Shown here: positions 1 to 42,358 of the stretch, piece by piece
Layout of the letters: every line of letters starts with the position of its first letter
Position numbering within the stretch: position 1 is the first letter of the stretch
Virus record (IMG/VR): IMGVR_UViG_2609460053_000008
DNA from: a virus
Lineage: Duplodnaviria > Heunggongvirae > Uroviricota > Caudoviricetes
DNA: 43,294 nt
Direction: 5' to 3' (one strand)
Made by a program: the position numbers and the translations under genes
Notes under the pieces: generated by a model
The model's database searches: none
What the model saw: only the letters and a program-made list of their open reading frames with translations
Told to the model about the DNA's origin: nothing

Positions 1-342
1 ATGATGAAAAAAAGTATTCTGGCGTTTCTGTTACTCACCAGTTCTGCAGCGGCGCTGGCGGCACCGCAGGTGATTACCGTCAGCCGTTTTGAAGTGGGTA
101 AAGACAAATGGGCGTTTAATCGCGAAGAGGTGATGCTGACTTGCCGACCGGGTAATGCTTTGTATGTCATCAACCCAAGTACCCTCGTGCAGTATCCTTT
201 AAACGATATCGCACAAAAGGAAGTTACCAGTGGGAAGACTAAAGCCCAGCCCATTTCGGTGATTCAGATTGATGATCCTAACAATCGCGGCGAAAAAATG
301 AGTCTGGCACCGTTTATAGAACGAGCTGAAAAACTCTGTTAA
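1..342 (+). CDS. yebY: Host secreted protein YebY (DUF2511-like), 113 aa with N-terminal signal peptide
   Basis: Complete ORF; N-terminus [22 protein letters not shown] is a signal peptide; size and sequence match recalled E. coli YebY; lies next to the sRNA locus as in E. coli. Confidence 0.6.
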
Positions 343-500
343 TTACCTAAAATAACCTTTTGATTTCCAATAAAAAAACCGCCTCAGTTCTTTCACCAGA
401 ACGGGCGGTTTTTAACATTTAAGCTGATGACCACCGCGCTTTTTATTGACCATTTTGCACGCAAACTGGAAAACCTGGCGTCGTCATCTATTCTTAAAGG

Positions 501-603
501 GCAAGGCAACTAAGCCTGCATTAATGCCAACTTTTAGCGCACGGCTCTCTCCCAAGAGCCATTTCCCTGGACCGAATACAGGAATCGTATTCGGTCTTTT
601 TTT
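501..603 (+). ncRNA. sdsR: Small RNA SdsR/RyeB-like; its 3' end is the prophage attachment core
   Basis: Sequence GCAAGGCAACTAAGCCTGCATTAATGCC...ACAGGAATCGTATTCGGTCTTTTTTT matches recalled SdsR; terminal hairpin CCGAATAC/GTATTCGG plus T-run at 572-603. Confidence 0.6.
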
Positions 604-604
604 A
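578..604. repeat. attL core, left copy of imperfect 27-bp direct repeat ACAGGAATCGTATTCGGTCTTTTTTTA
   Basis: Direct repeat with 42202-42228 (2 mismatches); integrase gene lies immediately inside. Confidence 0.6.
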
Positions 605-640
605 ATTGTATTTAAAATCAATTAGTTGCAACCGTCTCCC

Positions 641-687
641 CGAAATTACTCGAAATTTACTCGAATTTCTGTATTCCGGTCTTTTTT
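641..687. repeat. Tandem CGAAATT(T)ACT repeats (candidate integrase arm sites) followed by a second partial core-like copy GTATTCCGGTCTTTTTT (671-687)
   Basis: Three adjacent 10-11 bp repeats at 641-670; 671-687 resembles core 3' half at 587-603; similar CGAAATTTTCT / CTCGAAAAAAAT motifs at 42059-42085. Confidence 0.4.
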
Positions 688-734
688 GGTTATATCACAA
701 CCAAAACACATTTAACAATCCATTTACGTTAAAA

Positions 735-1811
735 TCAGAGCAGTAAGTACGTTTTTTCTCTCTCATCAAGATACATTTTTGTTGTCTTCTCCGATGTGTG
801 GCCAAGTAGACGTTGAGCAAATTCTTCCCCACATGTTTCTTTGTACAATCGTCCAGCCAGGCTTCTGATCTCGTGAAAAGTTGGTGGGTTTTCACTGAAC
901 TGGATACCTGTTAATTTTCTGGCTGCGACAAATTTCTTTGTCAGGCCGTCCGGGTGAATGCTGCCGTCAGGGCTGTTTTTTCTAATCCCGGCACTGATTA
1001 GATAATCCCCCCTACTTACCATGCGGCACTGTTCAACTACTGCACCAAGTCGTAAACCAGCGACAGGAAGGCTGAGTGACAGGGGGATAGCAATCATCAT
1101 TCCTGTCTTAATTTGCCTGATGTGGAGACGATCATCATAAATCTCACTGAACCGCATATTTGTTATGTCTTCGCGACGTTGTCCTGTTACAAGGGCTAAG
1201 TCCATAGCTAATGGGAACCATGTCGGAAGTTGATCTGCTGCCTCCCTGATGCAGTTGTATGTCTTTAGTTTCAGCCGTTCTCTTGTAACTACTATTTTCG
1301 GTGCTCTTGTTGGCGTTACTGGATTTTGAGATATACGTCCTTCAACAATGGCCTCGCGGAACATATCAGATAACACAGAACGCATTGATCCTGCCATCGT
1401 GTTTTTCCCTCCTTCAATCCACAAATCAAGAAACTCGGCAATATGGCGAGTGGTTATTTCTGTCAGTAAAACCCCTCCTAATTTTTCTTTTATTGTCTCC
1501 AGTTGATTTACCCGAATTTTATAAGTATTTCTGGACACTTTTCTCCTTATAAGAATCGTTTTGTAACGTTCAATCCAGTCTGCCATAGTAAATGAGTCGA
1601 ACCCTTTTAGTTTTTCAATTAAGGCAGCAGGAGAGTAGTTTTTGTATATATAATGATTTGCTTCAATTGCCTGCGCTACTGCATCTCTTCTTGAAATTTT
1701 ACCTAGTGTAAATTCTTCTTTCGTCAGAGGGTTGCGCCAGTAATATGCTTTGTCCCTCCTTCGATATGTTAAGTTTTTAGGCAAATTGGGATCGTATTTT
1801 TTCCGCTGCAT
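735..1811 (-). CDS. int: Tyrosine site-specific integrase (lambda Int family)
   Basis: 358 aa; N-terminus resembles lambda Int arm-binding region ([21 protein letters not shown]); C-terminal catalytic region with HxLRH-type motif ([12 protein letters not shown]...[13 protein letters not shown]). Confidence 0.9.
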
Positions 1812-2064
1812 GTTTTAACTTCTCCAGTAACGGACTGTCTCTCCCTTGTCGCCCATTAGGCTGATGGTGTGTTATATCGGTATCAACCTTATTTGGGTTG
1901 ATATAGAAAGCTTCCGGAACCACCCTGTAACTCCTCCCGTGTAGTTCAGGTGCAGGATAAATGTTTCCATTCCTTGCCCATCGTCTCAGCGTTGATATTG
2001 ATGGTGGGTTATCCGGATATCTGAGTTTTCCCCACGTTTTGAGTGTCACAAGATTCATTGCCAT
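1777..2064 (-). CDS. xis: Excisionase (Xis-like)
   Basis: 95 aa ORF immediately upstream of and overlapping int; TLRRWARNGNIYPAPEL resembles lambda Xis DNA-binding region. Confidence 0.7.
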   Translation of the reverse strand: MAMNLVTLKTWGKLRYPDNPPSISTLRRWARNGNIYPAPELHGRSYRVVPEAFYINPNKVDTDITHHQPNGRQGRDSPLLEKLKHAAEKIRSQFA

Positions 2065-7637: not shown

Positions 7638-8032
7638 AATTATCTCCATTTTTACAAATGAATTTTGTCGATGCGGTGCCTGGTGCCTCCAGGTGACGTT
7701 AACCAGTTAACAATTAACGCCGGATAATCCACCCATAACACTGATGCTTTTAACTGTGCCGCGTGCGCTTAGCCGCATTCACCGCATCACAAAATTCACT
7801 TTAAAAAGGGGCGGCAGGGCAGCCACGGAGTAGAACTGATGCCGCCAAAGACTACACATAGCAATGTCGTTATTTACAACCGGAGGCGCACTCCCACCAT
7901 TTAAATTTAACAGACAAGACCGACTCTTTATGAATACCGGAAATGCGCCTTCGTGTTGTGCGCCTGTCTTTTTACCACTTCAGGCTCGGTGGTATACTGG
8001 AGTTCTCACACAACCAGTAATAAGGTATTCCG

Positions 8033-14258: not shown

Positions 14259-14460
14259 ATACAGCGAACGCCATTGGTTTAGTTGGATATTTACTGTGCC
14301 GGACAAAAACGGTTTGCGGGGAAATCTTAGTTAAGTAGAATGACTGCGGGTGCTTGAGGCTATCTGTCTCAGGCATGAACACCAAAAGGCAGATAGAGAA
14401 AAGCCCCAGTTAACATTACGCGTCCTGCAAGACGCTTAACATTAATCTGAGGCCATATCT

Positions 14461-14520
14461 ATGCGACACATAGAGATTAGCCTCTTACGGACCGAAAGGT
14501 CAAGGAGAAGCAGGCTATGA
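14461..14520 (+). CDS. mok: mok-like leader ORF overlapping the hok start
   Basis: 19-codon ORF MRHIEISLLRTERSRRSRL ending in TGA that overlaps hok ATG (CTATGA). Confidence 0.4.
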   Translation: MRHIEISLLRTERSRRSRL

Positions 14521-16671: not shown

Positions 16672-16697
16672 CTCAATCTGTTATCCGGGGCTATATT
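16668..16697 (+). promoter_or_regulatory. PR'-like late promoter (TTGACT-N18-TATATT)
   Basis: Near-consensus -35/-10 overlapping the Q stop codon. Confidence 0.55.
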
Positions 16698-16758
16698 CCT
16701 CACGCGCCAGCAAAATCTGGCGTCGGGATTAGCACCCCGGATGTTTACGGAGCGATAT

Positions 16759-16780
16759 GAGACGCGCCCGCGTCTTTTTT
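16759..16780 (+). terminator. tR'-like terminator about 75 nt downstream of the late promoter
   Basis: GACGC-GCCC-GCGTC hairpin followed by TTTTTT. Confidence 0.6.
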
Positions 16781-16944
16781 CATATCGTTTGCACAGTCAC
16801 ATTCGCGATTTATGGCGGGCTGTGTGGGGGAGCCGAAAGGCTCGCCGGTTTCCGTACCCGGTAGTGCTAACCCCGCACAGTTCGCCACCACGATGATTAG
16901 CACCTGACGGTGGCGATAATGTCCAAATGTACGGAGTTATCGTT

Positions 16945-41541: not shown

Positions 41542-42201
41542 ATCATGCATTTTATGCTGCGATTATGCGTTCTCCTGTTGTTTGTTGCTGAGAGTGAAAC
41601 ACCGGAAACATACTGGTGGATTGAAATGTTCTGTGTGGCAGCGTATGAATATGTCGTGGTAGGGTGGATAAAAAATGCCCGTGATGATCCGGGCAACATA
41701 GCAGTATGCATTTTTCTATTGTGAACTGATGCATTATACAAGTAATGCTGTTATTGAGGAAAGTTTAAAGAAGCGGCTCTTCTCCGCCTGTAAAGTTTGG
41801 TCATTATTGCTTTATATATAAGTTCCACCAGTAGGCGATCATCTATGATGTTGGCGTATCGACTTTGTATAAGAAGTTTCCAGTCGGAGATAAATGAAAC
41901 CGTAGCACGTCGTATGCAAGAACGTGCCACGGCTGGCTGATGGACGTTCGATAGCGCGAGTTTGAATGAAAATCAGCCGGAGGTGATTTTACATAATTGT
42001 TGCGGAATCATTCAATATAGGGATTGCTTATTTCTGCCTGGATTGGTCTGAAATAGTCCCGAAATTTTCTCTAAAAAACTCGAAAAAAATGGTAACTAAT
42101 TGAATGCATTAATATGCAATGGTACGTGTTTGGGATTAAAAGATGAGCGTGATTTTGTTTAACACATTAATTTAAAAAGGGTTTCTTGTTTGTTGACGAA
42201 A

Positions 42202-42228
42202 ACAGGAATCGTGTTCGGTCTCTTTTTA
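42202..42228. repeat. attR core, right copy of imperfect direct repeat ACAGGAATCGTGTTCGGTCTCTTTTTA
   Basis: 25 of 27 positions identical to 578-604; flanked inside by CGAAA-type arm-like motifs at 42059-42085. Confidence 0.6.
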
Positions 42229-42358
42229 TCTGTTAAAAGCCAGAAGCATTCCCTTCGCTGACTTTATAGTCAACCATAACACACACTCTACTGTCTGAGT
42301 CCAGCGTTTTTTAACATTCTTGTTAAGATTATGTGATCTTTAGCGCGGGAGGAAAATA

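Follow-up and report, generated by a model that had tools for sequence, protein, structure and literature searches.

The sequence from position 604 to 734 of the window (the whole 43,294-nt stretch of DNA analysed here) is probably the P' arm of a lambda-type attP, and the three tandem repeats in it are probably arm sites for the neighbouring integrase of a Rac-like prophage that sits in the terminator hairpin of the small RNA gene sdsR; this reading draws on sequence comparison and on analogy with lambda. An earlier note on this DNA had offered two candidate explanations of the repeats, integrase arm-binding sites and the trace of a secondary or tandem integration. The first proposal is supported by the N-terminal domain of the integrase, by the P'1-P'3-like position of the units, by their conservation and by the phase of the motifs in the P arm, while the second finds no support. 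The layout follows that of lambda attP, but the arm motif is another one and the P arm is organised differently, and both the target and the hot spot are already known from phiW104. Less ordinary are a conserved distal module beyond the units, and empty sites that keep a fossil integrase end with the ryeA -10.

The 17 nt at 671-687 repeat the 3' part of the core (587-603, GTATTCGGTCTTTTTTT) 84 nt downstream at exactly the coordinates first reported, with one C gained and one T lost, and three tandem units precede this partial copy. The motifs noticed at the right end are equally real (CGAAATTTTCT at 42060-42070 and CTCGAAAAAAAT at 42079-42090), and the right arm carries a phased set of units beyond these two. 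Over the whole 43-kb window and on both strands, the 17-mer is matched within an edit distance of ≤2 at the attL core, at the attR core and at 671-687 only. A run of three yCGAAwT at 9-12 nt spacing occurs once in the window and in 0 of 2000 mononucleotide shuffles, and the shuffles together with the whole-window search rule out a chance origin of the repeats. The loose pattern CGAAATTNNCT with one mismatch allowed is not enriched window-wide (15 found, 13.8 expected), so the evidence lies in clustering and position, not in motif count. A weight matrix made from arm units of many lineages places its top three scores on both strands of the window at 42057, 638 and 648, a test that is partly circular because the matrix forces CGAA. 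Since the core is a perfect dyad, the partial copy can also be read as an inverted left half plus loop (minus strand of the copy, GACCGGAATACAGAAATTCG; core, GACCGAATACAGGAATCG). Feature coordinates are collected in Table 1, in which signed positions are counted from the overlap centre; lambda positions given below were measured on NC_001416.

Table 1. Coordinates of genes and attachment-site features in the window
Feature	Position	Strand	Sequence	Basis or remark
yebY	1-342			left end of window
ryeA (sraC), part antisense to sdsR	463-607	-		Rfam RF00101, 179 bits
sdsR (ryeB), small RNA gene	504-603	+		Rfam RF00111, 118 bits; empty-site alignment
attL core	578-603	+	ACAGGAATCGTATTCGGTCTTTTTTT	attL/attR/attB/attP comparison
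IHF site, H' type (predicted)	616-628	+	AATCAATTAGTTG	matches WATCAANNNNTTR; +33..+45
Arm-type unit 1 (P'1-like)	640-649	+	CCGAAATTAC	+57..+66
Arm-type unit 2 (P'2-like)	650-660	+	TCGAAATTTAC	+67..+77
Arm-type unit 3 (P'3-like)	661-670	+	TCGAATTTCT	+78..+87
Partial core copy	671-687	+	GTATTCCGGTCTTTTTT	free-phage attP; several integrase lineages
Conserved box	688-699	-	GGTTATATCACA	majority fraction 0.90; 8/12 columns invariant
Conserved TTTAACA box	711-717		TTTAACA	majority fraction 0.92
int, lambda-type tyrosine integrase with arm-binding N-domain	735-1811	-		lambda Int structures, Pfam
xis (excisionase)	1777-2064	-		PF07825, E 6.5e-14; RefSeq annotation excisionase
P-arm arm-type units (42047-42089)	42047-57	+	TCTGAAATAGT	weak
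	42058-68	+	CCCGAAATTTT	
	42069-78	+	CTCTAAAAAA	degenerate CTAA
	42079-89	+	CTCGAAAAAAA	
P-arm IHF-like site	42093-42105	-	TAACTAATTGAAT	reverse image of consensus, 1 mismatch; consensus match only
attR core	42202-42227	+	ACAGGAATCGTGTTCGGTCTCTTTTT	bacterial G and C retained
pphA, then yebW				right end of window

The window runs from yebY through sdsR/ryeA and a 41.6-kb Rac-like lambdoid prophage to pphA, and the insertion point of the prophage is the sdsR terminator hairpin. Alignment of the window with a K-12-like empty site (L001) runs to about 604 and resumes at the attR core; lambdoid prophage DNA starts at 604 and includes int, xis, ralR/RalA, recT and recE. From the empty-site alignment, the att core is the last ~23-26 nt of sdsR, the phage supplying the 3' part from about 589. 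A tRNA-like integration target was also considered and dropped, as ARAGORN found no tRNA gene in the window. The alignment of L001 gives attB as ...GACCGAATACAGGAATCGTGTTCGGTCTCTTTTTATCTG... and phage PP818812 (L003) gives attP as ...GACGAAAACAGGAATCGTATTCGGTCTTTTTTTAATTG..., and ACAGGAATCGT is the same in attB, attP, attL and attR, with mismatches at 577 and 589 that bracket the exchange. Since the phage A and T are found in attL and the bacterial G and C in attR, the strands were exchanged within ACAGGAATCGT. The core region is a perfect 10-bp dyad, GACCGAATAC (570-579) and GTATTCGGTC (587-596) around the 7-nt spacer AGGAATC (580-586), which as the SdsR terminator hairpin folds at -15.8 kcal/mol (z -4.3). 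On sequence, AGGAATC is a candidate 7-bp overlap, and the inverted dyad halves on either side of it are candidate core-type sites.

Integration leaves sdsR with a phage-supplied 3' end, GTATTCGGTCTTTTTTT in place of the K-12 attB sequence GTGTTCGGTCTCTTTTT of L001, in which a G-U pair of the terminator stem becomes an A-U pair and the U-tail runs without interruption. Such an altered SdsR 3' end in lysogens could affect termination or Hfq binding. The native ryeA promoter and the first ~40 nt of ryeA now lie on the attR side, 41.6 kb away through the prophage. Elsewhere in the prophage, Rfam hits at gathering score mark RalA, DicF, sok and an antisense-immunity cluster of C4, isrK and c4-a1b1 (at 2169-2347, 7809-7860, 14348-14519 and 16691-16892).

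Viral contigs scanned for the attP/attR form of the core showed that at least 120 IMG/VR loci from many lineages use this site, which confirms the sdsR site as an insertion hot spot. Two loci hold tandem elements of different integrase lineages that share one hybrid att site at sdsR: the cores of L089 lie at 556 and 8867, and those of L205 are about 9 kb apart. In L089, a (GGAAAC)n repeat directly next to the core closes the P arm of the first element.

The units at 640-670 and the partial core copy are phage DNA. The left flank is matched by 5426 of 5426 complete E. coli genomes, with ≥80% query coverage in only 228, which leaves about 5,200 without such coverage, and among the genomes listed the match stops at 604 in the non-carriers. 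Comparison with prophage-free strains, where identical repeats would have refuted the reading of the earlier note, showed that prophage-free E. coli, including the K-12-like empty site, is without the repeats, which excludes host DNA as their source. Comparison with the attP of related phages points the same way, for two free-phage records have an uninterrupted attP beside int, made up of P arm, core, the three units and the partial copy, and so do the IMG/VR attP contigs L055 and L069. PP818812 is 97% identical to the window prophage over int and attP, and Salmonella phage ZC-S1_prp, 72% identical over int, carries a contiguous attP; the partial core copy was found in the attP of PP818812, OK490361 and the IMG/VR contigs L055 and L069. 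PP818812.1 is labelled "Actinobacillus phage vB_Apl-pPE4", and its core matches enterobacterial sdsR; this host label looks doubtful.

The gene next to the arm encodes an integrase of the lambda type in full length, residues 8-353 aligning with lambda Int 10-348 (E 1.4e-71). The isolated lambda arm-binding domain 1KJK is also matched (E 3.9e-4), and the protein scores above the Pfam cut-offs for PF09003 Arm-DNA-bind_1 (28.1 bits vs 22), PF22022 Phage_int_M and PF00589 Phage_integrase; the gene upstream of int belongs to the Exc family of excisionases. Between the core and the arm units lies a predicted IHF site, where AATCAATTAGTTGCAAC of the window aligns without gaps with lambda H' TTATCAATTTGTTGCAAC, and this H'-type site is retained in most diverged relatives. 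Conservation was assessed in a set of 11 non-redundant P' arms, of which one is more distant and the others belong to integrases 69-100% identical. In this set the mean majority fraction is 0.99 for the core, 0.74 for unit 1, 0.85 for unit 2 (8 of 11 columns invariant) and 0.93 for unit 3, compared with 0.46-0.70 in the spacers; among diverged relatives the units are islands of conservation. CCGAAT is common to the arm consensus yCGAA(A)T and the left half-site of the core, ACCGAATAC, and arm-matrix scores are 6.1-6.6 for the core halves compared with 10.5-14.9 for the units. Because binding by the integrase is something we infer, the assignment of the units to this protein rests on analogy and conservation.

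Several relatives (L127, L163, L158, L174 and L107) have two tandem units instead of three and lack unit 1, a loss of one 10-11-bp unit as slippage would give. With such two-unit arms present in nature, unit 1 appears to be dispensable. A larger loss is seen in attL of L030 (IMGVR_UViG_2728369554_000022), where exactly the 84 bp between two GTATTCGGTCTTTTTT copies are missing; without the IHF site and all three units this prophage is presumably locked in. The 84-bp deletion junction was found as a single piece in 0 of the 30 best-matching E. coli genomes, in a search that joins pieces and from which rare cases could escape.

At the other end of the prophage, CGAA starts at -147 and -126 in the P arm of the window, a degenerate CTAA stands at -137, and the units extend over about -147..-117. 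The plus strands of 53 non-redundant P arms from many element lineages contain 139 CGAA, of which 117 lie at -150..-121, with peaks at about -149, -138/-136 and -127 in an 11-bp phase, and no reverse-strand CGAA occurs at -150..-121 in these 53 arms. The IHF-like site of this arm, a consensus match, sits inside the conserved TGGTAACnnnTTGAT, which adjoins the units in many lineages. Two direct repeats, TGGTAAC (42090-42096) and TGGTACG (42120-42126), lie ~30 nt apart and have counterparts in other lineages (ATGGTAAG, ATGGCAAC and ATAGTAAG); they are candidate sites for excisionase or another accessory protein.

Taken together, we propose that the three yCGAAAT units (640-670) would bind the N-terminal domain of the adjacent integrase as counterparts of lambda P'1-P'3, and that IHF on AATCAATTAGTTG would bend the arm so that integrase molecules on the units could also reach the core. 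The units at 42047-42089 would be the P-arm sites of the same system, left at attR by integration, and strand exchange would occur in or beside AGGAATC, between the halves of the hairpin dyad. The partial copy GTATTCCGGTCTTTTTT is a conserved component of the P' arm between the last unit and the GTTATAYCA box, and not the scar of another insertion. This provides a concrete attachment-site map for a prophage family widespread in E. coli, Shigella and Salmonella, and a map of core, overlap, IHF site and P'- and P-arm units helps in calling prophage boundaries and in designing sdsR-site integration vectors.

Beyond the units, every close relative and many distant ones have the partial core copy after unit 3, with the variants GTATTCCGGTC, GTATTCGGTC, GTATCCGGTC and ATATTCCGGCC, and the mean majority fraction of the copy in the 11 P' arms is 0.77. 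Other lineages have a core-like element at this place, GAGTATTCGGTAT in L089 and L131, CAATTCGGGAT in L193 and L096, and CATATCCTGTCT in a second integrase lineage (lineage 2, 47-52% identical), so that the copy is retained in integrase lineages down to about 50% identity. The copy is always followed by the GTTATAYCA box at 7-10 nt, and KTTATANCA at a fixed distance is present in 64 of 74 unique arms, where 0.003 is expected. Read on the minus strand this box is TGATATAAC (697-689), an extended -10-like sequence that faces the core and ryeA. Its TG-A-TATAAC is conserved, but the final T is missing; TTGTTA lies on the same strand, 18 nt upstream of TATAAC. In lineage 2 the equivalent box, AAACCATAACATA, is made of the last codons of int (YVMV-stop).

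The end of a lineage-2 integrase is also found where no prophage resides. The empty-site spacer between attB and pphA (L001:1765-1900, corresponding to window 42228-42340) is homologous to the 3' end of lineage-2 int, and this fossil end spans ...KKYLDARGAEYVMV-stop through TTGTTAAATTTTTGTG. Besides E. coli, seven further flank types show this homology; measured against shuffles, the local-alignment z is as high as 13.9. The native ryeA -10, ACCATA, taken from the mutagenesis primer of a ryeA promoter mutant that swaps ACCATA for CTCGAG (PMC6610125), is located in the empty site 47 nt past the end of sdsR, and this experimentally defined -10 falls on the last codons of the fossil int. Sequences that might have been taken for a bacterial flank with fossil arm repeats proved to be the P' arm and int 3' end of this second lineage.

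Several explanations of the partial core copy have to be weighed against one another. A secondary or tandem integration in this strain, with the copy as its footprint, could be argued from the tandem elements that do occur at the hot spot (L089, L205) and from the L030 deletion, which falls exactly between the two copies. True tandem junctions, however, have full cores kilobases apart (8-9 kb) and not 84 bp, and the copy is present in free-phage attP and in the arm type of all 228 E. coli carriers; its occurrence in free phages and its conservation across lineages contradict this part of the earlier interpretation, which we find scarcely credible. It is also very improbable that unit 3 and the copy together act as a back-up plus-strand terminator of the intrinsic type, which would stop sdsR read-through before the antisense int. 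A T-run does follow a possible CGAAU/AUUCcG stem, and read-through of sdsR into pphA is documented in K-12 (PMC6610125), but the hairpin at the copy folds at only -2.5 kcal/mol (z 0.0) compared with -15.8 for the real terminator, the terminator scan makes no call, and stem and T-run are lost in other lineages (alifold energy about -1). Folding, and RNAalifold on 11 relatives, gave no conserved RNA structure over the copy on either strand (energies 0 to -4), and a reading as RNA structure was rejected on z values that were not significant for the plus-strand hairpin or for the predicted minus-strand RNA. A further possibility, which we regard as rather unlikely, is that the copy is an extra integrase-binding site that helps to build or regulate the attL/attP complex, either a half-site of the core type, comparable to C', or an arm-like site in inverted orientation. 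The copy matches the C' half-site GTATTCGGTC, exactly so in L033, L067, L077 and L085 and, in another lineage, as GAGTATTCGGTAT (L089/L131), and it follows unit 3 in roughly 10-11-bp phase; yet single-base indels in the middle of the site are tolerated (TTCGG, TTCCGG, TCCGG), which is unexpected for a sequence-specific half-site, the window copy gives no arm-unit score on either strand, and lambda has no counterpart. An inverted arm-type site at 671-681 in particular was discarded, since the weight matrix gives it no support in the window. Finally, the copy and boxes might be a functionless relic, a captured attB or int 3' end of an older cassette that is kept because it is short and linked. 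Fossil int 3' ends do persist even in empty sites, the core-like box of lineage 2 is flanked by the last unit and the stop codon of int, and the int stop of the window lies 48 nt further out, as if the cassette had been replaced. Neutral sequence should nevertheless have decayed to the level of the spacers, and the copy and boxes stay at 0.77-0.92 among integrases 69-75% identical, so we consider a relic improbable.

A further reading extends the arm-site explanation instead of competing with it, and we put it forward only tentatively: the distal module (copy, GGTTATATCACA and TTTAACA) may be a phage-carried promoter and 5' end, reading leftward across the arm sites into ryeA, that replaces the native ryeA promoter, the copy then giving the first ~12 nt of a chimeric RyeA. 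The minus strand offers TGATATAAC as extended -10 with TTGTTA as its upstream partner, the box is conserved at a fixed distance though non-coding here, and it is positionally analogous (after the last arm unit and a core-like element) to the one that holds the native -10 ACCATA. This candidate -10 would lie 39 nt further from sdsR than the native -10. In lysogens of phiW104, according to a review (PMC7380047), ryeA is altered in its 5' part and is transcribed less, though still transcribed. Moreover, a SraC longer by ~35 nt is reported for Shigella, where the -10 is located ~35 bp further upstream (PMC3333887), and this P' arm is also present in the representative genome of S. flexneri, which may account for the longer SraC. 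These published observations would fit a weaker start brought in by the phage. On the other side, TATAAC does not end in T, the highly conserved last base of a -10 hexamer, a simple promoter scan is silent, no significant RNA structure appears at the 5' end, and in lineage 2 the equivalent box is merely the end of int. A broader version, for which our confidence is similarly low, is that sdsR phages carry a replacement RyeA promoter and 5' end, and that the native promoter was itself phage-born, from the fossil int, and has been replaced repeatedly.

The SdsR/RyeA pair is toxin-antitoxin-like and controls read-through into pphA (PMC6610125), and if the module is a promoter, lysogeny at sdsR rewires this pair. 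The ryeA/sraC promoter is very variable between species while sdsR is conserved (PMC3333887), and the distal module and fossil int ends bear on why this should be so. In the S. flexneri genome in question (SFBU1023, L005), the P' arm lies beside sdsR in a part of the assembly with many small indels.

Compared with lambda attP, our arm-site reading finds the same basic plan. The Int proteins are homologous over their full length including the arm-binding domain, an excisionase gene lies beside int, and int reads toward the P' arm; in lambda, the intasome is described by a heterobivalent bridging model (PMC4880445). H' occupies +32..+44 in lambda and +33..+45 in the window, with near-identical sequence. 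The three tandem direct units cover +53..+82 in lambda (P'1 at +53..+62, P'2 at +63..+72, and P'3 following P'2) and +57..+87 in the window (+57..+66, +67..+77 and +78..+87). The two systems differ in that int stops at +80 in lambda and at +152 in the window, which leaves room for the conserved non-coding module of partial core copy, GTTATAYCA and TTTAACA, a module without lambda counterpart. The arm motif is yCGAAAT in the window and CAGTCACTAT in lambda. Arm and core sites of lambda are unrelated, whereas the window motif CCGAAAT resembles the left core half ACCGAATAC, and a different binding logic is therefore possible. In the P arm, the window has three phased direct units (-147, -137, -126), whereas lambda, whose P arm comprises P1, H1, P2, Xis sites and H2, has P1 and P2 opposed with H1 between them. 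Unlike that of lambda, the core of the window is the terminator hairpin of a small-RNA gene.

Integrases that target tRNA or tmRNA genes, such as those of P4, P22 and HP1, use a phage core that copies the 3' end of the target, so that the gene is rebuilt after integration, and for the recombinase dyad they use the symmetric stem of the RNA gene. The target in the window differs from these in being a small RNA that binds Hfq and is overlapped by an antisense gene; as sdsR is rebuilt by integration, ryeA is necessarily broken.

The same ryeA/ryeB hot spot is used by phiW104, a Salmonella DT104 phage, whereas the element of the window is a Rac-like lambdoid prophage of E. coli. According to PMC7380047, which summarises Balbontin et al. 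2008, phiW104 attaches within the last ~23 bp of ryeB/sdsR, and ryeA receives a different 5' part on integration. A precedent for a promoter among att arm-type sites is attL of KplE1 (CPS-53), where the sites of the integrase and of the RDF overlap the intS promoter (PMC2951348). The KplE1 promoter drives int, whereas int of the window reads toward the arm and the candidate promoter faces the host DNA.
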